A stretch of DNA of 64,000 nucleotides. Origin: a virus. Its lineage: Duplodnaviria > Caudoviricetes. The stretch lies in the IMG/VR virus record IMGVR_UViG_3300028025_000089. One strand, given 5' to 3'. The first letter of the stretch is position 1, and each line of letters begins with the position of its first letter. A program made the position numbers and the translations under genes. The notes beneath the pieces were generated by a model. It worked only from the letters and a program-made list of their open reading frames with translations, had not been told where the DNA came from and ran no database searches. This document shows positions 13,660 to 53,091 of the stretch, in pieces.

Positions 13660-13662
13660 TTT

Positions 13663-15384: not shown

Positions 15385-15387
15385 TTT

Positions 15388-18183: not shown

Positions 18184-18206
18184 ACTTTTTTATTTAATTT
18201 TGTTAT

Positions 18207-18809: not shown

Positions 18810-19534
18810 TATTTTAAACTTTTTAATTTCATTATTGCGTCAATCAAAACCTCAACATCTCTTTCACAATAGTCAGATATTTCTTTTAATCTGTTGTGAC
18901 TCCAATACGCTTCGTGAACCATTCCACCATTTACTTCACCATCTTTTGGTGTTGGAATATCCAAACATGCACACATCAAATCTAAAGAACCAATTGCAGT
19001 ATATGCACCGTATTGCCAAATTTCTTTTGTGTCAATTGCTTTAACTTCCCAAGGTTTTGTATCGTATGACGGTAAAAGTTTAGATGGCATAATACCATTA
19101 ATAATCATTCTTTTTGCCAACATCGGAATGTCAAAGTTTTTTAGATTATGACCACACAGATAAAAATCTAATTTGTGACATCTGTTTAAAAGATCTCTAA
19201 CCTCTGTTAGTAATTTGGTTTCATCATCACCCGAGAATGTTTGCATTTTTGTTTGTCCGTTGTCTAAAACAAATGCCATGGATACACAAACAATCTTGGC
19301 AAACTCAGGAACAAGTGCCGCTCTTTTTCTAAACACTATGTCCATATGTTCTTCAGTTGTTCTATCTTCACCAAATTCTTTATCTTCGGGGAATCTTTTT
19401 AAAAACCAATCAAAATATTTGTCAAATTGTTCGGCAACTCTTGGGTTAGTTTTAATACATGATTGATAGTCAGCACACCCCCCAACGGTCTCAATATCTA
19501 AAAATAAAATTTTTGTAAGTGGTATATTAATCAT
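18809..19534 (-). CDS. Standalone PolB-like 3'-5' exonuclease (DEDD)
   Basis: FLDIETV, GHNLKNFDIP, YCERDV. Confidence 0.85.
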   Translation of the reverse strand: MINIPLTKILFLDIETVGGCADYQSCIKTNPRVAEQFDKYFDWFLKRFPEDKEFGEDRTTEEHMDIVFRKRAALVPEFAKIVCVSMAFVLDNGQTKMQTFSGDDETKLLTEVRDLLNRCHKLDFYLCGHNLKNFDIPMLAKRMIINGIMPSKLLPSYDTKPWEVKAIDTKEIWQYGAYTAIGSLDLMCACLDIPTPKDGEVNGGMVHEAYWSHNRLKEISDYCERDVEVLIDAIMKLKSLK

Positions 19535-19537
19535 TTT

Positions 19538-32742: not shown

Positions 32743-33945
32743 TTATAGATTATCAAATAAATTTGTTTCGGGATTATAAATTAAATCTTTATTCCCACCA
32801 TTAAATAAATTGTAAATAAGTTTGTCATAGGTTTCAACCAAAACTTCATTGTCCGCATGGTATCTTTGAAGAACCTTATCATTTCTTTCATGATACTCGA
32901 TTAAATTATTATCGTGTTCTGATAATATGTAATCCAATTGTTTTGCTCCACCAACTGTGTCAGATCCTTCGTAATAATAACCAAGATCTTTACACAAAGG
33001 TGCGTTATGTAAAACAGGATAACCCAAAAACGCGGCATCCATATATAAATAATTCAACGGATTTAAAACTTGATGACAAACAAGAACATCCAAATGTTGA
33101 GTTAGAATAAATGCAGTTTGATATCTTGCTTCGCCCGAAACTCTTTTGTCTTTATATAAATCAAAAGTTTTTACAATCGCCATAAACTCATGATTAGTTT
33201 TTAATTTTTCAGCGTTTGTAATCATCAAACTATTTATTTTTTCTTTACCAATTTCACCTCTATAACATTCCTCAACCACCAAAGATGGTATAAGTGCATA
33301 TTTGACTATATTAATATTTGGTTCCATAATACCAATAGTCTTTCTTTCTTTATTAGGAACGTATTTATATCCTTTTTTGTATTTTCCTTCTAAGTGAGAT
33401 CTTTCAATTTCTTTTACACTTTCCAATAAAAATTTGTGGTGCCAAATAAAAGGGACCATTATTGCATCAGTTCTATACACCGTTTTGAAAAAACCAAAAT
33501 TTGTTTCGTGTTGTTGTGGAATATACCAAACCTCATCAAAAGTTGTTTCGTATTCAATATAATTTTTTTGATTTTCACCAAATAAAACTTTTTCAGTATT
33601 CAAAATGTAGTTATTACCACATTTGTATGCGACATATCTTTTATTAGGATCTTCTTTAAATTTTAATATTTTTGATTCGTGAATTTGTGCTCCCATCATA
33701 ATAATAAGATCCATCTCCATATATTTGTCGTCAAAGAAATATATGTCAAGATCTTCTAAATATTTTGCCTTTGTTAAATTATCACCCTCAACTTTAACAC
33801 TATTTAAAATACAAACTTCATAATTGTTTGTTGAGTTTTTTAAAAGATGCGACAACATTAAAACATTTTGTTTCATACCATTTGTCCATATTGACTCAGA
33901 GTAACTTTTAAGTGCTAATGTGATTCCAATTTTTAAATTTTTCAT
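32743..33945 (-). CDS. DUF2827-like protein (putative GT-B glycosyltransferase), paralog 2
   Basis: IGIT...SIWTNGMKQN, MEPNINIVK, HQVLNPLNYLYMDAAFLGYPVLHN; start corrected to 33945. Confidence 0.75.
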   Translation of the reverse strand: MKNLKIGITLALKSYSESIWTNGMKQNVLMLSHLLKNSTNNYEVCILNSVKVEGDNLTKAKYLEDLDIYFFDDKYMEMDLIIMMGAQIHESKILKFKEDPNKRYVAYKCGNNYILNTEKVLFGENQKNYIEYETTFDEVWYIPQQHETNFGFFKTVYRTDAIMVPFIWHHKFLLESVKEIERSHLEGKYKKGYKYVPNKERKTIGIMEPNINIVKYALIPSLVVEECYRGEIGKEKINSLMITNAEKLKTNHEFMAIVKTFDLYKDKRVSGEARYQTAFILTQHLDVLVCHQVLNPLNYLYMDAAFLGYPVLHNAPLCKDLGYYYEGSDTVGGAKQLDYILSEHDNNLIEYHERNDKVLQRYHADNEVLVETYDKLIYNLFNGGNKDLIYNPETNLFDNL

Positions 33946-33946
33946 A

Positions 33947-35095
33947 TCAATAAATTTTATTTTCTTCCCAATTATATTTTTTTCTTTCAAACTTATTATT
34001 TAAAACATTTTCAACAAGTTCTTTGTATTGGTCAACTAAAGTTTGATTTTCTTTAGTGTATCTTTTTATAATTTCTCTATTTTTGTTGATGTATTCTTTA
34101 TAATTGTCATTATGATTTTTAATAACATCGTCAATTCTATTTAAAGCCTCGTCTCCATTGAATCCTTCATAGTAATAACCAACGTCTTGACACATGGATC
34201 CATTATGGATAACAGGATACCCCATCCAAGCAACATCCAACCATAAATAATTTAAATTATTTTCCCATTGCCAACTAAAAACAAAATCGGTATGGTCAGG
34301 AACAATTTTGGCCGTAGGGTATCTATCCTCAACACTTACTATTTTACTTTTACCGATTTCGGTTGATAAAACAAAATCAATAAATGGTTTTGATGTTTTT
34401 ATAACATCGGCACCAAATAAATATATGTGACTCAGAGGATTTATTTTTTGATTTTTTTCTAATATTACTATCGGTAAAACAACATTTTTCATTACAGAAA
34501 TATTAGGTTCCATAACCGAACACCTTTCTATTTTTCTTGGTGCATATGTTTCTTTGTTTCTTAATTTAAACGTTTCTTCAATTACAAATGGATCCCAAAT
34601 AAATGGGACAACAGTTACTTTATCTTGACCTGTAATAAACTGATAAAAACTATAGTTGGTTTTTTCCATTTGAGGTATTGACCATACTTGATGTGGTTTT
34701 TGATCTAAATCATATCTATTTCTAAAATAAGTAGTATCTTCATTTTTTTTAAATAAAATATTTTCAGTTTTCATGAGGTAATGATTACCACATTCATATG
34801 CTACTATTTTTAGATCTTGATTTTTTATTTTCCATTTTTTGAAGTGTGTTTTTTGCACCGTAAATCCCAATTGAATAACCAAATTATATCTTATATTATA
34901 AGATTTTTCTAAACTAAAAATGTTTATTTCGTTTTCGTATTTTTTTATTTCTTCGATTGTGTTTTCATTACCACAAATTAAATCAACAATATATCCACAT
35001 TTTTTTAACACTCTCGCTAAATATATGGCGTTTTGATTAACTCCATTTGAAAATAAATTGCCTTTTATATTAATTGTTATTCCAATTCTTTTCAT
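33947..35095 (-). CDS. DUF2827-like protein (putative GT-B glycosyltransferase), paralog 1
   Basis: RIGIT...LFSNGVNQN, MEPNISVMK, WQWENNLNYLWLDVAWMGYPVIHN. Confidence 0.75.
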   Translation of the reverse strand: MKRIGITINIKGNLFSNGVNQNAIYLARVLKKCGYIVDLICGNENTIEEIKKYENEINIFSLEKSYNIRYNLVIQLGFTVQKTHFKKWKIKNQDLKIVAYECGNHYLMKTENILFKKNEDTTYFRNRYDLDQKPHQVWSIPQMEKTNYSFYQFITGQDKVTVVPFIWDPFVIEETFKLRNKETYAPRKIERCSVMEPNISVMKNVVLPIVILEKNQKINPLSHIYLFGADVIKTSKPFIDFVLSTEIGKSKIVSVEDRYPTAKIVPDHTDFVFSWQWENNLNYLWLDVAWMGYPVIHNGSMCQDVGYYYEGFNGDEALNRIDDVIKNHNDNYKEYINKNREIIKRYTKENQTLVDQYKELVENVLNNKFERKKYNWEENKIY

Positions 35096-38700: not shown

Positions 38701-41700
38701 AACTTCGTGATATGTTTGTTCCAATTAATTTAATTAATGGTGGGGTATATCCTTCACCTAATGGGGCAAATTTAAAAATTAATACAAGTGCGGGTTACAT
38801 ATATGGTTTGGGTATTAATTTCGCATCGAATACATTAGAACCAAATTCATTATCAATATCAGGAACTAGTCCTTGCACATTTCAATATAGAACTCAAACA
38901 GGTGGGACGGTTACAAATGTTACTGATATTGATCCACTTAACTATGATGTTGGTGGAGTTAAAACACCAATAACAGGAACTAAAACAACAAACCAAAGAA
39001 TTTTTTTATTACAAAATGGTTCGTTTAGAATTCAATACGGTCAAAACGTTTATACCACATTTGCAGAAGCGGTTGCATCATTACAAACCGAATCATTCAC
39101 GGAATTCCCTAATTTTATTAACAATGCCGTTCTTATTGGAATCTTAACGGTGACATCGACCGCAACTGATTTAACGGATCCTGCAAAGGCAAGATTTTTC
39201 TTCGCATCCAAATTTGGTGAAACTGTAGGTGCTGCGGGAGGAGTGTCAACAACAAACTTACAACAGGCATACAACAACTCATCTCAACCTGAAATCACAA
39301 CTAATTCAACATTAGGTGCTGTTTCAATTAAAAGAGGTAGTGCTTCTGACGCTGATCATGTATTTGAAATTCAAGATGGTGCTGGTGTTGATAGAATGTT
39401 AGTTAATGGTTCAGGTAGAACAACAACGACAGATTTAACAATTACAGGTCTTACAGTTAATTCAGGATTGACAAGATTTTTAGTTGTCGATACAAGTGGA
39501 AACACATATTACAGAACAAGTGGTGCCGATGGAACATCGGGAACTAACGGGACATCAGGGACTAATGGAACTAGTGGTAGTTCAGGAACTAATGGTACAA
39601 GTGGAACCAATGGAACTAGCGGTAGTTCAGGGACAAATGGAACATCCGGCACAAACGGGACTAGCGGTTCTTCAGGGACTAATGGGACAAACGGGACATC
39701 TGGAACGAATGGCACAAGTGGAACAAATGGAACTAGTGGTTCTTCAGGAACTAATGGAACAAACGGCACATCAGGGACTAATGGAACATCTGGCACAAAT
39801 GGTTCTTCGGGGACTAACGGTAGTTCAGGAACAAATGGAACATCTGGCACAAACGGGACTAGCGGTAGTTCAGGAACAAACGGGACTTCAGGAACTAATG
39901 GCACAAGTGGAACCAATGGAACTAGCGGTAGTTCAGGCACAAATGGAACATCCGGCACAAACGGGACTAGCGGTTCTTCTGGAACCAATGGAACAAGCGG
40001 TAGTTCAGGCACAAATGGAACATCAGGATCTAGCGGAACTAATGGAACATCAGGAACTAATGGAACTAGCGGTTCTTCAGGCACAAATGGAACAAGCGGA
40101 ACCAATGGGACTAGCGGTAGTTCAGGAACAAACGGAACAAATGGAACTTCAGGGTCTAGCGGAACTAATGGAACAAACGGTAGTTCAGGCACAAATGGAA
40201 CATCAGGATCTAGCGGAACTAATGGAACCAATGGAACATCGGGAACAAACGGAACTAGCGGTAGTTCAGGGACTAACGGCACATCAGGAACAAATGGGAC
40301 AAGTGGAACTTCACCAACAGTTCCAGGATCAAATGACCAAGTATTAACTTCAAACGGGTCAGGTGGAATAGTTGCAGAATCTTTATTAACATTTGATGGA
40401 ACTAAATTAAGTATGTTATACCAATCAGGTGATGAAGGTGGTGAATTATTCTTAAACAAGGCGGTTACCAATACAACATTAAGTGGTGGAATTACAATAG
40501 ATTCATACCAAAATAAATTAAGATTTTTTGAACAAGGTGGAACTGCGAGAGGTGCGTATATTGATTTAACAGCATGTGCTGCCGGTGTTGGCACAAATTT
40601 ATTAAGTGGTGGTGGAACGACTAGTGGAACAAATGGAACATCGGGAACCAATGGAACATCGGGAACTAATGGAACAAACGGAACATCCGGCACTAATGGC
40701 ACAAGTGGAACTTCAGGATCTAGCGGAACTAATGGAACATCGGGATCTAGCGGAACTAATGGAACATCGGGAACCAATGGGACTTCAGGGTCTAGCGGAA
40801 CTAACGGAACAAGCGGAACCAATGGGACTAACGGAACAAGCGGTTCTTCAGGCACTAATGGAACTAATGGAACAAGCGGAACGAATGGAACTAATGGTTC
40901 TTCAGGAACAAACGGCACATCAGGGACAAACGGGACATCTGGCACTAATGGAACAAGTGGTTCTTCAGGGACTAATGGAACTTCAGGGACTAATGGGACT
41001 AGCGGTTCTTCAGGGACAAATGGAACATCGGGAACCAATGGGACTTCAGGGTCTAGCGGAACTAATGGAACATCGGGGTCTAGCGGAACTAATGGAACGT
41101 CAGGAACTAATGGAACAAGTGGTTCTTCAGGAACTAATGGAACTTCAGGAACAAATGGAACTTCAGGAACAAATGGAACTAGTGGTTCTTCAGGGACAAA
41201 CGGGACAAGTGGTAGTTCAGGCACTAATGGAACTAATGGTACAAGTGGAACTAACGGTAGTTCTGGAACTGACGGAACAAGCGGAACAGGATTTTCATCA
41301 ATTTCACCAACTACAAATGATAACATATTAACAGCAAACGGAACTTCAAATTCTGCAGATTCAGAACCAAATTTAACATTTGACGGAATAAATAATATTC
41401 TGAATGTAACGGGTAGAACCAACATGACAGACTCAACTGCAGCACCAGCACCTTCGTTAAGTATTGTAAGTAACCCAACAGTACCGGTTAAAAGAACAAT
41501 ATCTGTTACTAATTCAGGTGACGGTATAAATACAAATGATCTATTTGGAGTTCAAACATTAGTGACAGGTGCGGTTAATAGTGCAATTGGATACTCTACT
41601 GACGTTTCAGATGCCGTAGGAGAAAATATTGGTGTTGATATTATCAATGCTTCAAGTCAGTCAGGATCAACTCAATGGGGGTCAAGAACAAACGTTGTGA

Positions 41701-42725
41701 GTGCTGGACCAGATATTAAATATGGTCACTACACTTTATTGGCCAACGGAGGTAAAGATAATTATGGTAATTATAATCAAGTTTCTGACGGGACAAATTC
41801 AAACACAGCTTACTATGGTAATGTAACGGGAATTGTAAATAAATTTGGTTACGTATTACAAGGAACAAACTCTTCAGCAAAACCATCAGGTAGTGATACA
41901 CAATATGGTGTGTCTCTTACCGTTAATGGTGCAGGTAACACATCAAGCACACAAAAATACGGAGGTTACTTTGATGTAAGTGGGGATGCTAAAGGACATA
42001 GTGGTATATATACTAAAGCCCAAAGTGCCACCGCAGCTAATTATGGTGTTGAGGCATATGCCTCGGGTATATATGGAAATAATTATGGTATTTACGCTTT
42101 AAATGATACAGTAGTTAGTGGAGGTTTAGACGTTCAACATGGTGGGTATTTTGAATCCACTGGTTTTGGTGATGTAACATCAACAATAAAATATGGTGTT
42201 TTTGCGTCGGCTTCAAACACGTCACTTGAAAACTATGGTTTATTTACTCAAGCAAATGGTGGTGATAAAAATTATTCATTATATGCTGCCGCTGGTAGAT
42301 GGACATTAAGACACGACCCGAATGTCGAATTAGGTATAAGTGACCCTGAAGGTTATGGTGACATTGTATATTTTGGTGGTGGAGGAAGTTCATTTGCAGC
42401 CGGTGATGTTGTTTATTTAAACGCAACAGGTGATTGGTCACCAACAGATGCTGGTAATTCTGGTAACTCAACAAATATGTTAGCATTAGCTCTTGGTAAC
42501 AATGTGTCAGATGGACTTTTGATTAGAGGTTACGCATATTCAAGTAGTTGGAGTTGGACCATTGGTGCACCTTTATATTTGGTTTCTGGAACTGCAGGGG
42601 CTATGACAAATACAGCACCATCAAGTGGAGGTGACGTTGTTAGAATAGTTGCTTATTCTATAGACTCGGCAACAGGAGGAAAAAAAATATATTTTAATCC
42701 TGATAATAGTTGGACAATAGCTTAA
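35742..42725 (+). CDS. Giant Gly-X-Y (GTS/GTN/GSS/GTD) collagen-like fibre protein, 2327 aa
   Basis: Four Gly-X-Y blocks separated by beta-rich fibre domains; beta-solenoid NYG repeats and a decoration-like C-terminal domain. Confidence 0.85.
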   Translation: MPIYNRLTDRQKVSAVTLNDIFHVVVTGDTTQSPQGSSYYAPLSDLQSLLSGSTGPAGTSGTNGTSGTNGTSGTNGSSGINGTSGTNGSSGTNGSSGTNGTSGTNGTNGTSGISGSSGTSGSSGSSGSSGSSGTNGTSGTNGSSGTNGSSGTNGTSGTNGTSGTNGTNGTSGSSGTSGSSGTSGTNGTSGTNGSSGTNGTSGSSGANGTSGTNGTSGSSGTNGTSGTNGSSGSSGTNGTDGSSGSSGTNGTSGANGSSGTNGTSGTNGTDGSSGTNGTSGSSGTNGTSGSSGTSGTDGLTCINYTLSAPGPTDSQFTGTTCDGVQQTGNVASGTSYSDCFISGSVTMNNGGIITNNGICVGTSGTSGTNGTNGTSGTNGSDGTSGTNGTSGTNGTSGTNGTDGSSGINGSSGTNGTSGTNGTDGTSGLNGTSGTNGTSGTDGISGTNGTSGTNGSSGSSGTNGTDGTSGTNGTSGSSGTNGTDGTSGSSGTNGTDGTSGSSGTNGADGSSGTNGTSGTNGSSGTNGTDGTSGTNGTDGSSGSSGTNGTSGSSGTNGTNGTDGTSGTNGTDGTSGTNGTSGSSGTNGTDGTSGTNGTDGSSGTSGTNGTSGTNGTDGSSGTNGSSGTNGTDGTSGTNGTSGTDGTSGSSGTNGTSGTNGTSGTNGTNGTSGTNGSSGTNGTDGTSGTNGTSGSSGTNGTDGSSGTSGTNGTSGTNGTDGTSGTGFNTVQDPALTRVLTSDGTPNGAIAQSGLTYNGTQLTVTGLTYTSGVTSTSKITFPQITINSSYTATTNDYMIDVTGGTFTVSLPSAVGIQGRLLVVKNNGGGAVTVDPYGSETIDGKPFVILGETNSIQLASNGSEWVALGYNISTVNSSTGVFEFTGLTKVSNTTFNVARVKGWIVDDTTNPLSPQLYYVDFSGGTFTDNYVTTDFETFVYLTSGGTIGQQPTILTEQQRRQNIFLGKIGHPEKTSINLVFSQPDFVQSPLSQLRDMFVPINLINGGVYPSPNGANLKINTSAGYIYGLGINFASNTLEPNSLSISGTSPCTFQYRTQTGGTVTNVTDIDPLNYDVGGVKTPITGTKTTNQRIFLLQNGSFRIQYGQNVYTTFAEAVASLQTESFTEFPNFINNAVLIGILTVTSTATDLTDPAKARFFFASKFGETVGAAGGVSTTNLQQAYNNSSQPEITTNSTLGAVSIKRGSASDADHVFEIQDGAGVDRMLVNGSGRTTTTDLTITGLTVNSGLTRFLVVDTSGNTYYRTSGADGTSGTNGTSGTNGTSGSSGTNGTSGTNGTSGSSGTNGTSGTNGTSGSSGTNGTNGTSGTNGTSGTNGTSGSSGTNGTNGTSGTNGTSGTNGSSGTNGSSGTNGTSGTNGTSGSSGTNGTSGTNGTSGTNGTSGSSGTNGTSGTNGTSGSSGTNGTSGSSGTNGTSGSSGTNGTSGTNGTSGSSGTNGTSGTNGTSGSSGTNGTNGTSGSSGTNGTNGSSGTNGTSGSSGTNGTNGTSGTNGTSGSSGTNGTSGTNGTSGTSPTVPGSNDQVLTSNGSGGIVAESLLTFDGTKLSMLYQSGDEGGELFLNKAVTNTTLSGGITIDSYQNKLRFFEQGGTARGAYIDLTACAAGVGTNLLSGGGTTSGTNGTSGTNGTSGTNGTNGTSGTNGTSGTSGSSGTNGTSGSSGTNGTSGTNGTSGSSGTNGTSGTNGTNGTSGSSGTNGTNGTSGTNGTNGSSGTNGTSGTNGTSGTNGTSGSSGTNGTSGTNGTSGSSGTNGTSGTNGTSGSSGTNGTSGSSGTNGTSGTNGTSGSSGTNGTSGTNGTSGTNGTSGSSGTNGTSGSSGTNGTNGTSGTNGSSGTDGTSGTGFSSISPTTNDNILTANGTSNSADSEPNLTFDGINNILNVTGRTNMTDSTAAPAPSLSIVSNPTVPVKRTISVTNSGDGINTNDLFGVQTLVTGAVNSAIGYSTDVSDAVGENIGVDIINASSQSGSTQWGSRTNVVSAGPDIKYGHYTLLANGGKDNYGNYNQVSDGTNSNTAYYGNVTGIVNKFGYVLQGTNSSAKPSGSDTQYGVSLTVNGAGNTSSTQKYGGYFDVSGDAKGHSGIYTKAQSATAANYGVEAYASGIYGNNYGIYALNDTVVSGGLDVQHGGYFESTGFGDVTSTIKYGVFASASNTSLENYGLFTQANGGDKNYSLYAAAGRWTLRHDPNVELGISDPEGYGDIVYFGGGGSSFAAGDVVYLNATGDWSPTDAGNSGNSTNMLALALGNNVSDGLLIRGYAYSSSWSWTIGAPLYLVSGTAGAMTNTAPSSGGDVVRIVAYSIDSATGGKKIYFNPDNSWTIA
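35895..36641 (+). repeat. Gly-X-Y block 1 (83 triplets)
   Basis: 747 nt = 83 x 9 nt. Confidence 0.85.
36822..37901 (+). repeat. Gly-X-Y block 2 (120 triplets, rich in GTD)
   Basis: 1080 nt = 120 x 9 nt. Confidence 0.85.
39522..40313 (+). repeat. Gly-X-Y block 3 (88 triplets)
   Basis: 792 nt = 88 x 9 nt. Confidence 0.85.
40626..41282 (+). repeat. Gly-X-Y block 4 (73 triplets)
   Basis: 657 nt = 73 x 9 nt. Confidence 0.85.
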
Positions 42726-42727: not shown

Positions 42728-45658
42728 TTAAAACTGTCTATTATCAATGTAGATAATAACTTCATTGTAGTATTCTATAAAATGTTCGTTCCATAAATCC
42801 CACTTTATGTTTACACCATCAATAGAATACACTTCAAAGTTATTAAACATTTGTAAAATATTATCTCTAAACCATCTGAACTTACATTCATGAAAGTTTT
42901 CATCGTTACGTAAATGAAACTCGGTAACAATTTTTGGGATTGTTTTTAAAAATTCTATATTAGATGGTTGAAACACATCGTATTCTCCCCCTTCACAATC
43001 ACACTTAAGAAAATCAATTTTATCAATTCCATTCTCATCTAAAAATTCTCTGAATGTAAAAGTAGGAACACTTTCACTAATTCCATCCCATGTAATGTCA
43101 ATTCTTTTTTTGTCAGTAATTGCACCCTGAATTATTTTGACATTATTTTTTCCAACGTTCCTTTTTAAAACTTCTATTTGATATGATAATGGCTCAACAA
43201 CAAAACATTGTTTTGGATTGTTCGGTAAAATTGAATACGTGAATGGTCCTAATGATGCACCTAAATCAACAACAATATCACCCTCTTCTACGGTAAAACA
43301 TCTATCATATATGTTATGATCTTCAATTTCTTTAATTGCGGCCTCACTATACCAATTAGTTTTTCCTCCCCAATCAAAACCATCTAATTTATTTTTTTTC
43401 TCAATAACTTGTTCTTTATTCATAATCTTATTTATTTCTTTTATCACCATGTCTGATGTTATTTTTTTGGAACATTCAAATTGACGATCAGTTCCTTTAT
43501 GAAGTGGACACCAATTCCAATCACCAGCGTTTAATCTATCATTATTAAAACATCCATGACATACGTCTTCATTTATAACTCTATATGTGTCTAACTTTGT
43601 TTCTGCAAATTTTTCACTAAACCCTGAAATTAAAATGACGGGTAATTCACATGCCCAAGCCAACCAAGATAAGCCTGAACCTAACCCAATGAAAAACTCA
43701 CAAGTTGATAAATCATCAATTACTTCTTGTAAATTACCACCTTTATATATTGTAACTCCTTTTGGGTAAAAATTATTCATATACCCATCACCTTCTTTAG
43801 AATAGATCATACATTCATAACCTAATGCATCAAGATGATCTATAACGGACTGCCACCCATCAGGATTGTTCCAATACTTTGCCTGTGCGGTTGAATGAAA
43901 TCCAATACCAACTTTTTTCTTTTTTGGGGTGTTTGGTAATTTAAGTTTTGGTCTAATCTCTTTATATTCTAATCCCAAAATATCCGTTGCTGTTTTTTGT
44001 AATGGCTGTCTTTTAAAATCAAAAGGATGTTTATTAAAATCAAATTCCCCATTTTCGTTGTAATACCAACCAAGTTGATATTGAGCGATTATATTATATA
44101 CCGTTTCACCTGGATCAACAAATTCAATATTTGGGTATTCATTTTTAAATAATGAATTCATAAATGTGGATACGATCAACTCGCAATTGTGTTTTTTTCT
44201 AAACTCCTCACAATATGGAATCCAAGCCAACGTGTCACCAAGAGATTTTGAACCGAAAGAAATATAAACTCTTTTGTTTTCAAGATTCAAAACATTTGAA
44301 TAAATAACATTTTTGTTTTCTTTTATTTCGGTTTTCCATTTTGTGTAATATTGTCTATTAACTTTAACCCAAGAATTGATTTTAATATTATTGTTATAAA
44401 TAATATTTTCTTGTTCATCAAAAAAGGTAATCTCAAAGTTTGAATCGTCATCCCCTGTTATTTCAATAAAAGGATTTACAACAAAATGATTATTTATCTT
44501 GCATGATTTTGTTATTGGATTATTTATTGTTTTTGTTACATTTTTAACTTCTTTATAAAAATCTAATAACTCTTTTTTAAAATCCCTTTCATTATTTATT
44601 TCATAAGTTTCATTTGAATTTAATAACTCAAGTAAGGTATTTTTTATGTCGTTGTAATCGTTTGATTTGATTGGTGTAATATACTTGTCAAACATTCCAA
44701 CATATTGTGGTAGATTTCTTGTCATTATTTTCATTCCATAGTTAATAGATTCTCTAATAACCAAAGGATTACATTCCCAAGTTGAGTTAAACATTAAAAC
44801 ATCACAGGCTTTCATAAATGTATCAACATCATCTCTTTCACCCCACACCGTAACATTCTTTGGTAAATCATCCATTATTGGTTTCCAATAATTTTCAAAG
44901 TTTGACGCTTGGTTTCCAATAAAATGAAAATGTAAATCAGGGTGAGTATCTTGTAATAATCTTGCAACTTCAATACCCTCCTTTTGATTTTTACCTTCAG
45001 TCCAAAGACCGACATTTAAAATGTGTGTTTTTGTAATTGGGATGTTTAATTTTTCTCTTTCTGTTATTTTTTTTAATAATGGAACTCTATGTGATTGATC
45101 AACTATACTAAGGTCATTTAGTATATCACTTACCTTATCTTCCAATGGATATTCCCAAACTTTCTTTGGTGTATCAAGTTTGTTAAATTGACTTGTCAAA
45201 TGATAAGGGGTGACTAAAGAATAATAGTCAGGGTGTAGTTTTTTATTTGTATTTCCATTAAACCAAATGTTATGACAAGTCTCAACAATTCTCCACGTTC
45301 TATCATTATCATATAATTGGTTAAGTAGATCTAAAGGAATTTTATTAAAACTTTCAAACCCTTCCGGTATTTCTTCAATATGGACAATATCAATTTCATT
45401 TTCCTTTATAATATCAATTAGTTGATATTTTTTTTCAGGTTCTGTAAACCAACCTAATGTGAAAAAATGATTTGAATCAAGTAAGTCAATTATCTTATTT
45501 CTTTGAACTATGTATGTGTCACTAAACTGCGAATATTCTACAAGAAAAACTTCAATTTCATTTTTATATTCCAATAAAGATTCAATTCTCTTTAATACGA
45601 ATTGTGGCATCCCTCCTGTTGATAAATGGGGAACAACATACATTAATTTTATTTTCAT
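42728..45658 (-). CDS. Fusion: GT4 + autotransporter O-heptosyltransferase-like (Aah/TibC) + FkbM methyltransferase
   Basis: GT4: PHLSTGGMPQF, STWECNPLVIRE. Aah-like: SKSLGDTLAW, STAQAKYWNN, FIGLGSGLSWLAW, LISGFS, VCHGC..NWCP..FEC. FkbM: VVDLGASLG, VVEP, IDFLKCDCEGGE. Confidence 0.88.
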   Translation of the reverse strand: MKIKLMYVVPHLSTGGMPQFVLKRIESLLEYKNEIEVFLVEYSQFSDTYIVQRNKIIDLLDSNHFFTLGWFTEPEKKYQLIDIIKENEIDIVHIEEIPEGFESFNKIPLDLLNQLYDNDRTWRIVETCHNIWFNGNTNKKLHPDYYSLVTPYHLTSQFNKLDTPKKVWEYPLEDKVSDILNDLSIVDQSHRVPLLKKITEREKLNIPITKTHILNVGLWTEGKNQKEGIEVARLLQDTHPDLHFHFIGNQASNFENYWKPIMDDLPKNVTVWGERDDVDTFMKACDVLMFNSTWECNPLVIRESINYGMKIMTRNLPQYVGMFDKYITPIKSNDYNDIKNTLLELLNSNETYEINNERDFKKELLDFYKEVKNVTKTINNPITKSCKINNHFVVNPFIEITGDDDSNFEITFFDEQENIIYNNNIKINSWVKVNRQYYTKWKTEIKENKNVIYSNVLNLENKRVYISFGSKSLGDTLAWIPYCEEFRKKHNCELIVSTFMNSLFKNEYPNIEFVDPGETVYNIIAQYQLGWYYNENGEFDFNKHPFDFKRQPLQKTATDILGLEYKEIRPKLKLPNTPKKKKVGIGFHSTAQAKYWNNPDGWQSVIDHLDALGYECMIYSKEGDGYMNNFYPKGVTIYKGGNLQEVIDDLSTCEFFIGLGSGLSWLAWACELPVILISGFSEKFAETKLDTYRVINEDVCHGCFNNDRLNAGDWNWCPLHKGTDRQFECSKKITSDMVIKEINKIMNKEQVIEKKNKLDGFDWGGKTNWYSEAAIKEIEDHNIYDRCFTVEEGDIVVDLGASLGPFTYSILPNNPKQCFVVEPLSYQIEVLKRNVGKNNVKIIQGAITDKKRIDITWDGISESVPTFTFREFLDENGIDKIDFLKCDCEGGEYDVFQPSNIEFLKTIPKIVTEFHLRNDENFHECKFRWFRDNILQMFNNFEVYSIDGVNIKWDLWNEHFIEYYNEVIIYIDNRQF

Positions 45659-45711: not shown

Positions 45712-46638
45712 GTGAAAGAAATTTGTTTAGACATATCAGATTGTAGAGCGTTAGGTGATACTTTATGTGCAACCCCAACGATTAGAAAACTATATCACTC
45801 TTATGGAAAAAAAATTTCTGTAATCACACATTATCCTGAATTGTTTTATAACAATCCATATGTTTTAGAAATTTTTGATAATTCAAAAAATAAAGAAGAA
45901 TTATCAGATCATGAAATTTTTTCAACTTTCGACATTTCATACAAAGAAAATGGTGTTTGTAATAAACATAACACAATTGATATTAGACAATTTCACGCAA
46001 TTAATCTTGGGTTTATGTTAACCAAAAATGAGATGACCTTAGATTATTTTCCAAATGATGTGTCATTACCTGATCTACCAAAAAAATATGTTTTAATTCA
46101 TCCCGTTCAAAATTGGGAATCAAGAACTTGGCCAATAAAAAATTGGCAAATGTTAACACAGTTGTTAAATGAAAAAGGGATTCATGTTATTTCTGTTGGT
46201 AAAGATTCTTCTGAATTGGGAGGGTCTAATGTTGATAAACCTGTTTTTGATTTTCCAATTAAGTTGGGATATAACTTAATGAATCAAACTTCAATAGATC
46301 AAACTTGGCATTTAATAAATAATAGTTCTTGTTTTGTGACTATGGATTCGGGTCTTTTACATTTAGCGGGAACAACAGATGCCGAAATAATACAATTAGG
46401 AAGTTCAATCGATCCTGAGTTTAGATCACCATATAGAAATGGTAGTCAAGAATATAAGTATCATTATGTTAGTGGTGGTTGTGGTTTACATTGTGCCTCA
46501 GATATGAAATATGGTGTTCGTGAGTGGGGATCAATACAAGGTATACCTTCTTTAGTAAAATGTTTAGAAAGAAAAGAAACTTTTGAATGTCACCCAAATA
46601 TCTTATCGGTATACAATAAAATTTTAGAAATAGTTTAA
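45712..46638 (+). CDS. GT9-family (heptosyltransferase-like) glycosyltransferase
   Basis: ALGDTLCATPTIRKL, LIHP..SRTWP, FVTMDSGLLHLA; GTG start. Confidence 0.8.
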   Translation: MKEICLDISDCRALGDTLCATPTIRKLYHSYGKKISVITHYPELFYNNPYVLEIFDNSKNKEELSDHEIFSTFDISYKENGVCNKHNTIDIRQFHAINLGFMLTKNEMTLDYFPNDVSLPDLPKKYVLIHPVQNWESRTWPIKNWQMLTQLLNEKGIHVISVGKDSSELGGSNVDKPVFDFPIKLGYNLMNQTSIDQTWHLINNSSCFVTMDSGLLHLAGTTDAEIIQLGSSIDPEFRSPYRNGSQEYKYHYVSGGCGLHCASDMKYGVREWGSIQGIPSLVKCLERKETFECHPNILSVYNKILEIV

Positions 46639-46992: not shown

Positions 46993-48237
46993 ATGAAAAT
47001 ATTTGTTCAAATCGCGTCGTATCGCGACCCTCAGCTTATACCAACAATAGAAAATATGTTGGAGAATGCCAAAAGACCAAAAAACATTGTAATTGGTGTG
47101 GCAAGACAATTTCATCCTGAAGATGGTTTTGATGATCTATCCAAGTATGAAAAAGATAAAAGATTTAGAATCCTAAATATTCCTTACACAGAATCAAAAG
47201 GAGTTTGTTGGGCAAGACATCAAGTTCAACAACTATATGGTGGTGAAGAATATACCCTTCAGATCGACTCTCACATGAGATTTGAAAAGAATTGGGATGA
47301 CGAAATGATTAAAATGATTAAACAACTTCAAAAGAAAGGTCATAAGAAACCTTTATTAACGGGGTATGTTTCATCTTTTGATCCTGAAAACGATCCTGCA
47401 GGTAGAGTTACTGAACCATGGAGAATGGTTTTTGATAGATTCACTCCTGAAGGTGTTGTATTCTTTTTACCTGAAACTATTCCAGGTTGGAAAGAAATGA
47501 AAGAACCAATTCCGGCAAGATTCTATTCTGCACATTATTGTTTTACGTTAGGTGAATTTTCAACCGAAGTTCAACATGATCCTGAATTTTATTTTCACGG
47601 AGAAGAAATTTCAATTTCAGTAAGAGCATATACTCACGGTTATGATTTATTCCACCCACATAAAGTTCTTGTATGGCACGAATATACAAGAAAAGGTAGA
47701 ACAAAACAATGGGACGATGATAAAGAATGGCATTTAAGAAATACCGCATGTCATATTAAAAACAGACAACTTTTAGGAGTTGATGGTGAAACGTTTAATG
47801 GTGATTACTCTGAATGGTTTGGAACTGAAAGAACCGTTCAAGATTACGAAAAATATGCTGGTATTCGTTTTGAAACAAGAGGGATTCAACAAGAAACAAT
47901 AGATAAAAAATATCCACCAAACACATATAATTTTGAAACCGAACAAGATTGGAAAAATTCATTCTCAACAATTTTCAAACATTGTATTGATATAAACTAT
48001 GTTAGTGTTCCTGAAAAAGATTATGAATATTGGGTAGTTGCTTTCCACGATGAAAATGACGAAACATTATATAGAAGAGATGCCGACATTAATGAAATCA
48101 ACGGATTCTTCAGAGACCCTGATGGGTATTGTAAAGTGTGGAGAGAATTCAACACAACTAAAAAACCTAAGTATTGGGTTGTATGGCCTTACTCAACTTC
48201 TAAAGGATGGTGTGATCGATTAACAGGAAATTTATAA
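46993..48237 (+). CDS. GT60-family polypeptide/hydroxyproline N-acetylglucosaminyltransferase-like protein
   Basis: IFVQIASYRD, SKGVCWAR, LQIDSHMRF (DSH motif), FHGEE, AYTHGYDLFHP. Confidence 0.85.
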   Translation: MKIFVQIASYRDPQLIPTIENMLENAKRPKNIVIGVARQFHPEDGFDDLSKYEKDKRFRILNIPYTESKGVCWARHQVQQLYGGEEYTLQIDSHMRFEKNWDDEMIKMIKQLQKKGHKKPLLTGYVSSFDPENDPAGRVTEPWRMVFDRFTPEGVVFFLPETIPGWKEMKEPIPARFYSAHYCFTLGEFSTEVQHDPEFYFHGEEISISVRAYTHGYDLFHPHKVLVWHEYTRKGRTKQWDDDKEWHLRNTACHIKNRQLLGVDGETFNGDYSEWFGTERTVQDYEKYAGIRFETRGIQQETIDKKYPPNTYNFETEQDWKNSFSTIFKHCIDINYVSVPEKDYEYWVVAFHDENDETLYRRDADINEINGFFRDPDGYCKVWREFNTTKKPKYWVVWPYSTSKGWCDRLTGNL

Positions 48238-48241
48238 TAAC

Positions 48242-49819
48242 ATGGCAAATATTTCGTTTTACGGTTCCCACAATGCCGCTGTAGTTGTGGAGGATCAAGG
48301 AAAAATTATTACAGTAATAGAGGTAGAAAGATTTTTAACTCAAAAAAATGCAGGTTATTCACAATATTTAGTATCATATTCAAGACCTTTTTTATTAAAA
48401 CATATTATACAATATATTAAAGATGAGTTTGGTATTTCTGAATTTGATAAATGTTATTACTTAAATTCTGATACGGTAGAAGGATCTGAAAAAGTTCATT
48501 ATCAAGAATTAATACCAGCAAAAGAATACATCAATTCATTACACCATTTAAGTCATGCTGCTTGCGGATTCTATCAAACGGATTATAATGAAGCGTTAAT
48601 CATTTCTTTTGATGGTGGAGGTAATGACGGGTTCTTCAATGTTTATCACGCTGAAGATAGAAATAACATAAATGTAGTTGAGAAATTCAATATTGATTTA
48701 GGATTTCCATATATGTCATTTGGTGATTACTTGGGTGACATTACAAAAGAACCGGCACTTAATATTGGTAATTTAGTTTATGCAGGAAAAATAATGGGTC
48801 TTTGTTCGTATGGAAATGTGAACGAAGAATGGTTACCACATTTTGAGGAATACTATAGAAGAAAACCAGATGGTTTAAATTACTTACAATACCTACAAGA
48901 ACTTAGTGAACAAACAGGTTTATCATTTGATATGGAAAATCGAATGTCAGGTCAGTTAGGGTGGGATGTTGCTAAGACATCACAAATTGCATTTGAGAAT
49001 GTTTTTATGGAATTGGCTCAACCGTTTTTAGATCAATTCCCTAATATTCCTTTGATTCTTGTTGGTGGATGTGCGTTAAATATCTTGTTAAACACAAAAT
49101 TACACCAAGAACTTAATAGACCTGTGTTTGTTCCACCAAATCCTAATGATTGTGGAATTGCAACAGGTATGATGTTAAATCACATTAAACCTGAAAAGGC
49201 AATTGATATTACTTATGCGGGTATTGGTATTTTAGACAAACACACATTAATGTCTCATGTAGAAGAACGACACGCTCTTCCTCTTAAAACTGAAATGTTA
49301 GTTGATGATTTAGTAGATGGTAGAATTGTTGGGGTTGTCAGAGGTAATGCCGAACATGGACCAAGAGCTTTAGGAAATAGAAGTATTATTTGTAATCCAG
49401 CCTACGAAAACATGAAAGACATTTTAAATGCAAAAGTAAAAAATAGAGAGTGGTATAGACCATTTGCGCCTGTTTGTAAATTAGAAGATGTATCTAAATA
49501 TTTTAATTTCGAAGGTGAGAGTAAATGGATGGGATTTTGCCCAACGGTAAAAGAAGAATGGAGAGAAAAATTAGTTTCAATTACACATGTTGACGGGACT
49601 GCGAGAGTTCAAACAGTTACAGAAGAACAAAATCCTTGGTTATATAATTTATTAACCGAATTTGAGAAAAAATCAGGAATTGGTGTTTTATTAAACACAT
49701 CTTTCAATGTAAACGGAAAACCAATTCTTTCTCGATATAGTGATGCGATTTGGGTTTATGATAAAACAGAAATGGATTGTCTTTTATTAGGTGATTATTA
49801 TTTTAGAAAAAGAGCATGA
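48242..49819 (+). CDS. Carbamoyltransferase (NodU/CmcH/TobZ family)
   Basis: HHLSHA, DGGG, GKIMGL, GGCALN, PNDCG, GPRALGNRSI, REWYRPFAP, HVDGTARVQTV, LNTSFN. Confidence 0.95.
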   Translation: MANISFYGSHNAAVVVEDQGKIITVIEVERFLTQKNAGYSQYLVSYSRPFLLKHIIQYIKDEFGISEFDKCYYLNSDTVEGSEKVHYQELIPAKEYINSLHHLSHAACGFYQTDYNEALIISFDGGGNDGFFNVYHAEDRNNINVVEKFNIDLGFPYMSFGDYLGDITKEPALNIGNLVYAGKIMGLCSYGNVNEEWLPHFEEYYRRKPDGLNYLQYLQELSEQTGLSFDMENRMSGQLGWDVAKTSQIAFENVFMELAQPFLDQFPNIPLILVGGCALNILLNTKLHQELNRPVFVPPNPNDCGIATGMMLNHIKPEKAIDITYAGIGILDKHTLMSHVEERHALPLKTEMLVDDLVDGRIVGVVRGNAEHGPRALGNRSIICNPAYENMKDILNAKVKNREWYRPFAPVCKLEDVSKYFNFEGESKWMGFCPTVKEEWREKLVSITHVDGTARVQTVTEEQNPWLYNLLTEFEKKSGIGVLLNTSFNVNGKPILSRYSDAIWVYDKTEMDCLLLGDYYFRKRA

Positions 49820-50703
49820 AAACAAAATTAGTAACTGCGTTTTATACTGATATTATTGGGTTTCCTTTTTTTGGTCACGAGTCCTTTGCAAGACATGAAC
49901 GTTATTTACATTCATTAAGAACTTTAAACAATATGAATACAGAAATTGTTTGTTATTGTAATGACACTCAATATGATTTAATGACCAAATATTGTGAAGA
50001 ATTTAATTTGACTAATGTAACGATTAAGATTTCAAACCTTAGAGATTATCCAAAAACAAATAGAATGTTAGAATTAAAAAGATCTAACGATCAATTTAAT
50101 TTTTATCATGAAGTTGATTGGAATAAGTTATATCTTCTTTCTAAAGAGTATGATGAATTTTATGATTATATTTATTGGATTGACTGTGGTTTATCTCACC
50201 GTGGTTTATTCACTTTAAAATACAATCCACACTCCGATAAAATTACAGGTTTATCAAGAGATTGGGAAAACTATTCATTCACAAATATATTTTGTCCTGA
50301 ATTATTTCCAAAGATAAATAATTGGGTAGGTGATAAATTAATCAATTTGGCAAACACTATGTTTTCCCACAACCCAAACGAAATTAGATCTGTTTATAAA
50401 AATAACAACGATTACAAACACATGTCAGTTGGTGGTATTTTAGGGGGACACATTTCAAAATTAAATTGGTTCATAGAACAATTTGATAGAATAAGTGATA
50501 TAAGTTTAAATGAAAATTTTATATTAAATCACGAAGGTATGATAACAGATTTAGAGTTTGAAAATCCTGAAATGTTTAAAACTTATAGTTTTGACACTTG
50601 GTATCATGATGACTTTTGGCTTACAACACCGATTTTCGATAGAGAATCAATTAAAAATAAAACACACTTCGTTCATTTTTTTGAAAAGGAGTTAGGAATT
50701 TAA
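49816..50703 (+). CDS. HtrL/WlaTC-like glycosyltransferase
   Basis: KLVTAFY, YIYWIDCG, VGGILGG, E-G near the C-terminus. Confidence 0.6.
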   Translation: MKTKLVTAFYTDIIGFPFFGHESFARHERYLHSLRTLNNMNTEIVCYCNDTQYDLMTKYCEEFNLTNVTIKISNLRDYPKTNRMLELKRSNDQFNFYHEVDWNKLYLLSKEYDEFYDYIYWIDCGLSHRGLFTLKYNPHSDKITGLSRDWENYSFTNIFCPELFPKINNWVGDKLINLANTMFSHNPNEIRSVYKNNNDYKHMSVGGILGGHISKLNWFIEQFDRISDISLNENFILNHEGMITDLEFENPEMFKTYSFDTWYHDDFWLTTPIFDRESIKNKTHFVHFFEKELGI

Positions 50704-50712
50704 AAATTAAAT

Positions 50713-53091
50713 ATGGAAGATTTTTTTGATAAGGTATTACACTATTATGGCAGAAAGGGCCAAAAACTATTTATGATCAACATTGGTGCCATGGACGGTG
50801 TTATGTTTGATAGTATGAGCGGTTATGCTCAAATATACAATTCAGATGTATTATATGTTGAACCAATGAAACCTCATTTTGAAAGATTGGTAGAACATAA
50901 AAGTAATAACCCTGGAAATAAATTTGAAAATTCGGCGATTAGCGATTTCAATGGGACTATTACTATGAAAACAATTCCAATTGAGGTTGTTGACGAAGGT
51001 TTAGTTCATCCTGCTTTTTATGGTATGAGTGTGATTGATCCTACTAAAAATGGTATGGGTAGTGAAGGTGACAGAGAGGTTGTTGAAAAATATGCCGTTG
51101 ATGTTGAGGTAAATTGCATCACATGGGATACTCTTGTTCAAAGACACAATATAGAACATTTTGATGTGTTGTCAGTGGATACTGAAGGACATGATTATAC
51201 AATTTTTAAACAAATTGATTTACAAAAATTTAGACCTAGTCTGATTAGATTAGAGTGGTGTAATATGACTGATGAAGAAAAAACTAACATTACAAATAAA
51301 TTTACAGATGCTGGATATGTTTATGAAATATTAGGTAATATGGATATTGATGCAATTAGAAAAGATGTTTACGATGAAATAGAATTATCTTTAAATCCTG
51401 TAAAACCAAAAGAAGAAAAATCAAAATCAAGACTTACCATTGTTACTGGTTTATGGAACATTAAAAGAGAAGAATTAAGTGAAGGTTGGTCAAGATCTTA
51501 TGAACACTACTTAGAAAAATTTTCACAGTTATTAGATACATCTTGTAATATGATAATTTTTGGTGATTCAGAATTAGAAAGTTTTGTTTTTTCTAAAAGA
51601 AGTCATGAAAACACACAATTTATTAATAGACCACAATCGTGGTTCAAAGGAGAATTCTATGATAAAATTCAAGAAATTAGAACAAATCCTGAATGGTATA
51701 ATTTGGCAGGTTGGTTAAAAGACTCCACACAGGCTAAATTAGAAATGTATAATCCGCTTGTAATGTCAAAAATGTTTTTATTACACGATGCGGTTATATT
51801 AGATAAATTTGATTCTCAAAAATTATTTTGGTTAGATGCTGGAATTACAAACACAGTGAATCCAGGTTATTTCACACATGATAAAGTTTTAGATAAGGTG
51901 GAAAATTTATTTGATCGTTTCACATTTGTTGCATTCCCTTACGAAGCAGACAAAGAGATTCATGGATTTGATATTGACGCAATGACCGAAATGGTTGGTC
52001 AAAGAGTTAATAAAGTTTGTCGTGGAGGTTTCTTTGGTGGATCTAAACCAATGATTAGAGAAATGAACACTCTATATTACGACTTAATGAAAACTACTTT
52101 AAGTAGAGGTCTTATGGGAACTGAAGAAAGTTTGTTTTCAATTATGACATATACAAACCCAAACAATATTGATTATGTAGAAATTGAGTCTAATGGGTTA
52201 TTATATAAGTTTTTTGAGGACGTTAAAAACAATAATGTAGAAATTAAAAGTTTTAGAAAGGGAACCCCAACCAAAGTTAGAAATGGAGATGTTGGTTTAT
52301 ATGTAATTACATTCAACAGTCCTAAACAATTTGAGACGTTAATTAATTCTATGTATGCTTATGATGAAGATTTTATTCATAAAACAAAGAAATTTTTATT
52401 AGACAACTCAACTGATTTATCTACCACACCAAAATATTTGGAACTGTGTGAAAAATATGGTTTTGAACACATCAAGAAAGATAATATAGGTATTACGGGA
52501 GGTCGTGTGTTTGTTGCCGAACATTTCCACGAATCAAATATGGATTACTATATGTTCTTCGAAGATGATATGTTTTTCTACAATGGACAAGATTTTACTT
52601 GTAAAAATGGGTTTATGAGAAAAACTAAAAATTTATACGAAAAAGTTTTACAAATTTCTAAAAAAGAAAATTTTGATTTCTTAAAATTTAACTTTACAGA
52701 ATTTTATGGTAGTCATGAAAAACAATGGGCGTGGTATAATGTTGATCAAGAGTATAGAAATACTATTTGGCCTGATAACCCAAAACTTCCTGTAAACGGT
52801 CAAGATCCAAATGCTCCTTATTTAGAATATAAAAATATTAAATCATATGAAGGGACACCTTACGCCACGGGTGAAGTTTATTTATCAAATTGGCCGATAA
52901 TTTTATCTAAAGAAGGAAACTACAAATGTTATATTGAAACTAAATACACCTATCCTTACGAACAAACTTTAATGTCACATTGTTATAAAGAAATGAAGAA
53001 AGGAAAAATACATGCGGGAGTTCTTCTTATGACACCAACCGAACACGATCGTTTCGAGTTTTATGAAGGTGGGTTAAGAAAAGAATTTTAA
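50713..53091 (+). CDS. Fusion: FkbM methyltransferase + HtrL/WlaTC-like GT + GT-A-like domain
   Basis: INIGAMDG, YVEP, LSVDTEGHD; TIVTGLW, SKMFLL, FWLDAG, GGFFGG, GTEES; YMFFEDD. Confidence 0.75.
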   Translation: MEDFFDKVLHYYGRKGQKLFMINIGAMDGVMFDSMSGYAQIYNSDVLYVEPMKPHFERLVEHKSNNPGNKFENSAISDFNGTITMKTIPIEVVDEGLVHPAFYGMSVIDPTKNGMGSEGDREVVEKYAVDVEVNCITWDTLVQRHNIEHFDVLSVDTEGHDYTIFKQIDLQKFRPSLIRLEWCNMTDEEKTNITNKFTDAGYVYEILGNMDIDAIRKDVYDEIELSLNPVKPKEEKSKSRLTIVTGLWNIKREELSEGWSRSYEHYLEKFSQLLDTSCNMIIFGDSELESFVFSKRSHENTQFINRPQSWFKGEFYDKIQEIRTNPEWYNLAGWLKDSTQAKLEMYNPLVMSKMFLLHDAVILDKFDSQKLFWLDAGITNTVNPGYFTHDKVLDKVENLFDRFTFVAFPYEADKEIHGFDIDAMTEMVGQRVNKVCRGGFFGGSKPMIREMNTLYYDLMKTTLSRGLMGTEESLFSIMTYTNPNNIDYVEIESNGLLYKFFEDVKNNNVEIKSFRKGTPTKVRNGDVGLYVITFNSPKQFETLINSMYAYDEDFIHKTKKFLLDNSTDLSTTPKYLELCEKYGFEHIKKDNIGITGGRVFVAEHFHESNMDYYMFFEDDMFFYNGQDFTCKNGFMRKTKNLYEKVLQISKKENFDFLKFNFTEFYGSHEKQWAWYNVDQEYRNTIWPDNPKLPVNGQDPNAPYLEYKNIKSYEGTPYATGEVYLSNWPIILSKEGNYKCYIETKYTYPYEQTLMSHCYKEMKKGKIHAGVLLMTPTEHDRFEFYEGGLRKEF

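Follow-up and report, generated by a model that had tools for sequence, protein, structure and literature searches.

A TibC/Aah-like transferase fused to GT4 and FkbM domains, encoded beside a collagen-like fibre that is its candidate acceptor in a tailed phage

The DNA analysed here is a 64,000-nucleotide (nt) stretch from IMG/VR virus record IMGVR_UViG_3300028025_000089 (hereafter the window), in which a three-domain enzyme, P0001, and a giant collagen-like fibre protein, P0002, are encoded by convergent neighbouring genes. The window is about 30% G+C, its genes include those for tail-fibre and head-tail adaptor proteins, a family-B DNA polymerase and a helicase, and its source is a tailed phage. 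P0001 is a single open frame of 976 amino acids (aa) with an ATG start on the minus strand (42728..45658), assigned by profile calls, phmmer matches and a structure model as a fusion of a GT4 glycosyltransferase, a TibC/Aah-like transferase of the BAHT family and an FkbM methyltransferase. A gap of 2 nt separates its stop codon (42730-42728) from the TAA (42723-42725) that ends the P0002 gene.

The GT4-type (retaining GT-B) domain occupies residues 1-372 (44543..45658; this and the other domains of P0001 on the minus strand). Within it, residues 198-353 match Pfam Glycos_transf_1 (PF00534, E 2e-14, 53.7 bits against a cut-off of 26.4), the motifs G222-K223 and E295-x7-E303 are kept in 21-23 of 23 aligned homologues, and Foldseek returns BshA, MshA, PimA/PimB' and WaaG. 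The BAHT unit (43421-44503, by the domain borders of the model) comprises an N-terminal beta-barrel (residues 386-456, 44291..44503), with seven strands in the model and recovered by Foldseek, and a catalytic domain with an iron finger (residues 463-746, 43421..44272) assigned by profile, phmmer and key residues. The profile NCBIfam TIGR04414 (hepto_Aah_TibC) covers residues 407-745 with 290.4 bits against a cut-off of 200 (E 2e-86). A flexible linker (residues 748-757, 43388..43417), disordered in the model with a predicted local distance difference test (pLDDT) score below 50, leads to the FkbM-family S-adenosylmethionine-dependent methyltransferase domain (residues 768-976, 42731..43357). 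Residues 796-915 of this last domain match TIGR01444 (54.1 bits against 37.7), PF05050 gives 42.2 bits against 22.7, and the motifs D798-x-G800 and D887-x-E889-G are conserved among aligned homologues. An earlier, sequence-only reading of this DNA had placed the three domains and a cluster of four cysteines in one open reading frame (ORF) ending 2 nt from the fibre gene; its nucleotide ranges agree with the model borders, and the cysteine coordinates and the spacing of the two stop codons are also correct. A promoter and terminator scan around the P0001 gene gave nothing above shuffled expectation.

That the middle unit resembles TibC, the E. coli enzyme that glycosylates an adhesin, as the same reading had proposed, is borne out by both sequence and fold. 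A phmmer search of the PDB matched TibC to residues 415-746 with E 4e-63, far beyond chance. The structure model of P0001, built from a 35-sequence alignment, has a mean pLDDT of 86 and lays out the GT4 domain, the seven-strand barrel, a GT-B core with a Cys-rich insertion, the linker and the FkbM domain in that order. When compared by Foldseek with the TibC chains of 4rap/4rb4, the model gives template modelling (TM) scores of 0.82-0.84 normalised to TibC and a root-mean-square deviation of about 3.1 A over about 380 columns of the roughly 385 TibC residues. Because the alignment spans about 380 columns of TibC, the beta-barrel is part of the superposition. The iron finger and beta-barrel distinguish BAHTs from lipopolysaccharide (LPS) heptosyltransferases and bind the protein substrate in TibC (PMC4358343).

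The residues with assigned roles in TibC allowed a closer comparison. Asp110 is the catalytic base, Thr226 and Lys230 lie on the beta-phosphate, Trp305 contacts the heptose O4, and Cys339, Cys342, Cys358 and Cys370 are the Fe ligands (PMC4358343). In P0001 the equivalents are D475, T590, K594 and W665, and C700, C703, C717 and C729 (43472..43561) align at the sequence level with the four Fe ligands. None of these catalytic residues has been lost, so the loss that the sequence-only reading had named as grounds for its refutation is not seen. Across 248 unique homologues from viruses or metagenomes, the Asp, the Thr, the Lys, the Trp and all four Cys never vary, on account of which the enzyme is judged to be catalytically intact, albeit without the base-specific contact of TibC. 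That contact is made by Arg286, which touches adenine N1, is the sole base-specific contact in the TibC-ADP-heptose structure and is the basis of ADP specificity; activity of the Ala mutant is abolished or largely diminished (PMC4358343). P0001 has V646 at this position and G660 in place of Pro300, a residue that governs C6 stereoselectivity in TibC (PMC4358343). Arg286 is replaced in 246 of the 248 homologues (V 201, L 31, T 10, I 4, R 1 at this position). It is present in all five reference BAHTs, which lie beside autotransporter genes, and in 37 of 37 bacterial enzymes of the classic clade described below. Further clade-specific differences, to which we attach no interpretation, are D to S at 620, W to G at 628 and W to F at 704.

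The convergent neighbour, P0002 (35742..42725, plus strand), is a 2327-aa tail-fibre-type protein and the candidate acceptor, on the basis of its Gly-X-Y content and PHROG matches. It contains 364 Gly-X-Y triplets in four blocks (residues 52-300, 361-720, 1261-1524 and 1629-1847), chiefly GTN (139), GTS (117), GSS (73) and GTD (22). Of the 1092 residues in these blocks, 547 are Ser or Thr and a single one is Pro. Residues 721-1260 match PHROG tail-fibre families (E 3e-23 and 5e-15), and searches of solved structures with the non-collagen parts of P0002 gave one weak match only, to a phage neck fibre (E 0.002). The GTN-GTS repeats also yield 173 Asn-x-Ser/Thr sequons, and the window showed no N-glycosyltransferase of the HMW1C type. 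The long ORFs that run antisense or out of frame within the P0002 gene, such as 39509-41425 on the minus strand, are artefacts of the repeats.

We then asked how often enzyme and fibre genes occur together. Among 79 IMG/VR phage loci with a relative of P0001, a Ser/Thr-type Gly-X-Y ORF lies within 10 kb in 39, among them nearly every locus at 54% identity or more, a count that by itself is weak evidence because related phages share gene order. By chance, a random 20-kb span would overlap such an ORF about 14% of the time, as estimated from two complete genomes. More telling than the count, the pair recurs in varied orientations and on distant branches, including one locus with a (GSS)n protein (L060) and others represented by L064 and L077/78. 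It is also found in a cultured phage, Microcystis phage Mel-JY01 (PP395634.1), where a 1226-aa protein has a C-terminal BAHT domain in which the Arg position is occupied by Ile. The gene for this protein lies 1.7 kb downstream of a 1016-aa plus-strand frame (L132:2-3049) with 162 Gly-X-Y triplets (GTS 66, GSS 51). The public record annotates that stretch as minus-strand hypothetical proteins (1-651 and 739-2298) and a short plus-strand ORF; the 1016-aa frame looks like a mis-annotated collagen-like fibre gene. The record closest to the window is a 63.6-kb IMG/VR fragment with a 71%-identical copy of the fusion, and further relatives are phage genomes of 256-373 kb, some with terminal repeats. 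In databases, over 120 clusters contain the fusion at an identity of at least 70%, and over 6000 protein clusters match the TibC-like domain with E 1e-10 or better.

A similar association was seen in bacteria. We scored 80 bacterial loci, one genome per species, for the residue at position 286 and for gene neighbours. Where position 286 is hydrophobic or Thr, a Ser/Thr-type Gly-X-Y ORF lies within 2 kb in 23 of 37 loci, in the hydrophobic group frequently only 0-160 bp off, and a giant Gly-rich ORF directly downstream in none (0/37). The corresponding counts for the 43 loci with Arg are 8 and 16. These giant Gly-rich ORFs are of the autotransporter type and encode 0.9-2.5 thousand residues. 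Two autotransporter beta-domains used as phmmer queries found no match in the bacterial loci, so that a giant Gly-rich ORF directly downstream is the sole mark by which an autotransporter-type neighbour is identified here.

In an unrooted maximum-likelihood tree of 133 BAHT domains, a long branch with support 100 sets apart the classic clade, which is made up of Enterobacteria, Oxalobacter, Elusimicrobia, Selenomonadaceae, Burkholderia and the reference enzymes. P0001 falls across the main split (support 95), within a viral clade (support 98), and this clade stands beside a methanotroph/Polaromonas clade (support 100) that has I, V or M at the Arg position and collagen-like neighbours. A gammaproteobacterial clade (support 99) has kept the Arg yet has collagen-like neighbours. 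Because the root is unknown, we claim no direction of change. By these sequence comparisons the P0001 domain is judged a true TibC/Aah homologue that lies outside the autotransporter-linked clade, and the methanotroph/Polaromonas pair, found in cultured and uncultured bacteria, is the bacterial counterpart of the phage pair. In the loci concerned, a stand-alone Arg-less BAHT-like gene is found 0-160 bp from a small (100-330 aa) Ser/Thr-type collagen-like ORF; the arrangement was seen in Methylobacter (L138, L147), Methylomicrobium (L156, L161, L163) and Polaromonas (L137, L152, L155, L159).

The most constant partner of the fusion is a GT9 (heptosyltransferase-family) gene, found beside the BAHT gene in 49 of the 79 phage loci (E 1e-79 to 1e-173). 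In the window it is represented by a divergent 308-aa gene (45712..46638, plus strand; PF01075, E 6e-17). When the four domains were used as queries against the BAHT-bearing ORFs of 76 phage loci, GT4-BAHT-FkbM fusions were found in 31, GT4-BAHT with FkbM and/or GT9 as separate neighbours in 23, BAHT alone with FkbM nearby in 14, GT9-GT4-BAHT in five, and BAHT-FkbM with a separate GT4 in three. Domains that are joined in certain genomes and encoded apart in others are commonly taken as evidence for a shared pathway, and this pattern marks GT9, GT4, BAHT and FkbM as probable members of one. The phages at 45-47% identity (L043-L053, for example L053:6410-12172) have a GT4-BAHT ORF that is extended at the N terminus, to as many as 1921 aa, with FkbM separate and downstream.

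From the domain identities, conserved residues, fold, variable fusion and gene linkage observed here we infer an acceptor, a donor, an order of steps and a purpose. We think it probable, though well short of certain, that P0001 is the centre of a phage protein O-glycosylation module that acts on the collagen-like fibre P0002 with host ADP-heptose, extension by GT4 and GT9, and methylation by FkbM. In the infected cell, the BAHT domain would move a first sugar from a nucleotide sugar, most likely host ADP-heptose, to Ser/Thr hydroxyls in the proline-free Gly-Thr-Ser and Gly-Thr-Asn repeats of the adjoining fibre, with D475 as the base and T590 and K594 holding the beta-phosphate. The sugar would be lengthened by the GT4 domain of the fusion and by the neighbouring GT9 enzyme, the FkbM domain would O-methylate it, and the glycan may serve to stabilise and shield a triple helix of the collagen type that lacks (hydroxy)proline. 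The sequence-only reading had suggested that one polypeptide could initiate, extend and methylate a glycan on the fibre; comparison lends this some support, through the single pathway indicated by the 76 phage loci and through the apparent link of this enzyme clade to Ser/Thr-rich collagen-like genes in phages and bacteria alike.

Several observations weigh against this proposal. Donor binding differs from that of TibC, since Arg286 is Val, and the nearest near-complete relatives of the phage, G004 and G005, yielded no heptose genes when searched. Part of the gene linkage seen in related phages reflects common descent and is not independent evidence. The group at 45-47% identity has no adjacent collagen-like gene, the one in phage G003 lying 46 kb away. 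TibC itself has a beta-hairpin thumb and forms a dodecameric ring in which Phe265, Val266 and Phe368 make the ring contact (PMC4358343). These thumb-tip residues are kept in P0001 as Y626, M627 and F727, and the thumb segment is three residues shorter than that of TibC and has no hairpin in what is a low-confidence monomer model there (pLDDT 55). As far as the model goes, a TibC-type ring for the 976-residue fusion is not established.

For the donor, we give ADP-heptose about an even chance and some other nucleotide sugar a clearly smaller one. ADP-heptose stays the best guess because bacteria with the Arg-less enzyme have HldE and one related phage encodes gmhA-like and hldE-like genes. Methylobacter and Methylomicrobium each combine an Arg-less enzyme with a true bifunctional HldE (397 and 385 bits). 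Phage G002, a 373-kb genome with terminal repeats whose BAHT domain is 68% identical, has genes for a GmhA-like protein (NF001628, 239 bits), for a kinase resembling HldE domain I (301 bits, cut-off 345) and for a transferase resembling HldE domain II, so that three of the four steps to ADP-heptose are represented and GmhB is absent. These three genes are scattered over the G002 genome (GmhA-like at C1:118794-119264, kinase-like at 39139-40074 and adenylyltransferase-like at 317253-317645). A weak adjacent gene pair in G003 resembles HldE domains II and I. GmhB was found in none of the five records searched (G001-G005), and gene searches of G001 and G004-G011 found no heptose genes. Almost no heptose genes were found next to BAHT genes, and this near-absence therefore gives no information on the donor.

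The strongest alternative is a variant of the proposed fibre glycosylation with the same chemistry and a different donor, which we regard as possible but not the likelier case. The viral and methanotroph clade would have lost adenine recognition and would use, for example, a GDP-activated heptose or hexose supplied through a Gmd-type cluster of the phage, or a non-heptose sugar. Arg286, named as the basis of ADP specificity (PMC4358343), is V, L, T or I in the 246 homologues that lack it, and is Arg in all five references and all 37 classic-clade enzymes. The window also encodes a GDP-mannose 4,6-dehydratase-like (Gmd-like) protein (10773-11747, minus strand; gmd 383 bits against a cut-off of 415), which together with its aminotransferase-like, acetyltransferase, methyltransferase and GT11 genes suggests that the glycan is made, in part at least, by GDP-sugar chemistry. 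Mel-JY01 has both the enzyme, with Ile, and the collagen-like ORF, and searches of its genome for gmhA and HldE found neither; the LPS of Microcystis is reported to contain neither heptose nor 3-deoxy-D-manno-octulosonate (Kdo) (review, PMC4515613). Set against a different donor are the true HldE of the Arg-less methanotrophs and the ADP-heptose-route genes of G002. The ligand corresponding to Trp305, which contacts the heptose O4 in TibC, and the phosphate ligands are also invariant, and the constant partner is an enzyme of the heptosyltransferase family.

The sequence-only reading had likewise suspected a donor other than ADP-heptose, and the same evidence divides over that suspicion: replacement of Arg286 strengthens it, and HldE in the Arg-less methanotrophs and the gmhA-like and hldE-like genes of G002 weaken it. 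Its premise, that many Bacteroidota lack heptose in LPS, is not borne out at the gene level, as 102 of the 121 genomes sampled from the Bacteroidota class searched have a gmhA-like gene at E 1e-30 or better, 68 of them with a score above the cut-off. The sample includes one unpublished genome (G110), and the outcome is unchanged without it. That reading had also recognised no heptose pathway in the window, a statement that now has to be softened: a 147-aa nucleotidyltransferase (10326-10769, minus strand) has HldE domain II as its best match, far below the cut-off (rfaE_dom_II 73.5 bits against 181.5) and close to TagD.

A broader idea can be put forward, which we hold more doubtfully still. 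In the large, mostly viral branch of the TibC/Aah family, which also includes enzymes of methanotrophs and Polaromonas, the acceptor may have switched from beta-helical autotransporters to proline-free Gly-(Thr/Ser)-(Ser/Asn) repeats, with loss of the adenine-reading Arg and, at least in certain hosts such as heptose-free cyanobacteria, use of some donor different from ADP-heptose. Dense O-glycosylation would then stabilise the triple helix of phage fibres in the way that hydroxyproline serves animal collagen.

The targets could instead be other phage proteins, such as Pro-Thr tract proteins or the decoration proteins of head and tail, with the adjacency to the giant fibre reflecting a general virion-glycosylation island; we consider this unlikely. 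The window does hold further candidate protein glycosyltransferases, namely a GT60 GlcNAc-transferase-like gene (46993-48237, plus strand) and two DUF2827 genes upstream of the fibre gene (32743..35095, minus strand; PF10933, E 3e-95 and 9e-74), as well as other Ser/Thr/Pro-rich proteins, and the phage groups at 37-47% identity have no collagen-like gene within 10 kb. Yet the Ser/Thr-type Gly-X-Y neighbour recurs, often at 0-160 bp, even in bacteria without the other island genes, and G003, where no fibre gene lies next to the enzyme gene, has a GTS protein of 404 triplets all the same, encoded 46 kb off. Least probable, and in our view very unlikely, is a non-protein acceptor, with host LPS, capsule or a phage-made polysaccharide being remodelled, possibly for superinfection exclusion or receptor masking: GT9 enzymes normally act on the LPS core and LPS-type HtrL/YibB, GT25 and GT2 genes lie nearby, but the iron finger and beta-barrel that bind protein in TibC are fully kept, neither a membrane segment nor a gene for a lipid carrier was seen beside the P0001 gene, and the link to repeat proteins holds across phyla.

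To our knowledge, phage virion glycosylation is known from only a few systems and the BAHT family only as a virulence-linked modifier of adhesins in enterobacteria. Full-text literature searches on phage autotransporter heptosyltransferases, and on heptosyltransferases with collagen-like proteins, found no description of the enzyme-fibre pairing; the pairing is real, widespread and undescribed in the literature searched. The TibC/Aah family is very common in aquatic jumbo phages and tied there to Ser/Thr-saturated, proline-free collagen-like fibres. If the proposed glycosylation of P0002 is correct, it would explain how such repeats fold and survive, would give a structurally well-understood enzyme a new acceptor class and perhaps a new donor, and would offer modular GT9/GT4/BAHT/FkbM enzymes for glyco-engineering. 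The idea is directly testable, because a cultured phage-host pair, that of Microcystis phage Mel-JY01, carries the same pairing.

The closest known system is that of TibC/Aah (BAHT, TIGR04414; PDB 4RAP/4RB4; PMC4358343), with which the whole unit of barrel, GT-B core and Fe(Cys)4 finger is homologous at 34-38% identity. The catalytic Asp, the Thr/Lys phosphate ligands and the sugar-binding Trp are shared, and in both cases the gene lies beside that of a giant Ser-rich repeat protein. Unlike TibC/Aah, P0001 falls outside the classic clade, has Val for Arg286 and is fused to GT4 and FkbM, and its neighbour is a collagen-like Gly-X-Y phage fibre rather than a beta-helical autotransporter. Chlorovirus PBCV-1 A064R is also a viral polypeptide with two glycosyltransferase domains and a methyltransferase that builds and methylates part of a virion-protein glycan, but the folds and families are unrelated: A064R has GT-A-like rhamnosyltransferases that extend a capsid N-glycan of a eukaryotic virus, and it does not initiate on protein (PMC9614988). 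Mimivirus L230 glycosylates the Gly-X-Y collagen-like proteins of its own virus, but it hydroxylates Lys and adds glucose to the hydroxylysine with a different fold (PMC9614988), whereas the candidate acceptor residues of P0002 are Ser/Thr in repeats with almost no Lys or Pro. In the O-glycosylation of mycobacteriophage virions (Freeman et al. 2023, cited in PMC12619734), phage glycosyltransferases likewise decorate the structural proteins of their own virion; to the extent that the system is described in PMC12619734, its enzymes belong to other families, with none of the BAHT type, and the targets are the C-terminal tails of capsid and tail-tube subunits.

Other glycan genes surround this locus. 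Downstream of the GT60-like gene, on the plus strand, are a carbamoyltransferase gene (48242-49819), an ORF of unknown type (49816-50703) and an FkbM + HtrL/YibB gene (50713-53091), all identified as context. These downstream glycan genes (46993..53091) are less constant than GT9, each being found in 9-21 of the 79 loci; when GT60, carbamoyltransferase, FkbM + HtrL and DUF2827 are considered together the range is 4-21. A minus-strand run of sugar-modification genes (10326-20749) contains, besides the nucleotidyltransferase and Gmd-like genes, a hexapeptide acetyltransferase, TylF-type and class-I methyltransferases, GT2, GT11, GT25, a double GT2 and a GT4-like gene. Genes for a dUTPase and an exonuclease are interspersed, and PhoH (9590-10324) overlaps the lower edge of the run. 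The DegT/LegC-type aminotransferase ORF in this run (11761-12360, minus strand) encodes 199 aa that match two separated parts of a profile of about 360 residues, and it looks truncated or internally deleted.

A giant-virus origin, prompted by HSP70 and ClpB genes on related contigs, was considered for the window and dropped in view of the PHROG tail-fibre and head-tail adaptor matches and the IMG/VR relatives with terminal repeats. The contigs L002 and L003 (259 and 208 kb) have fusions 72-84% identical, with HSP70/DnaK and ClpB-like genes within 10 kb. These chaperone genes recall the aquatic 'moraphages', which are predicted to infect Bacteroidota (PMC12619734).

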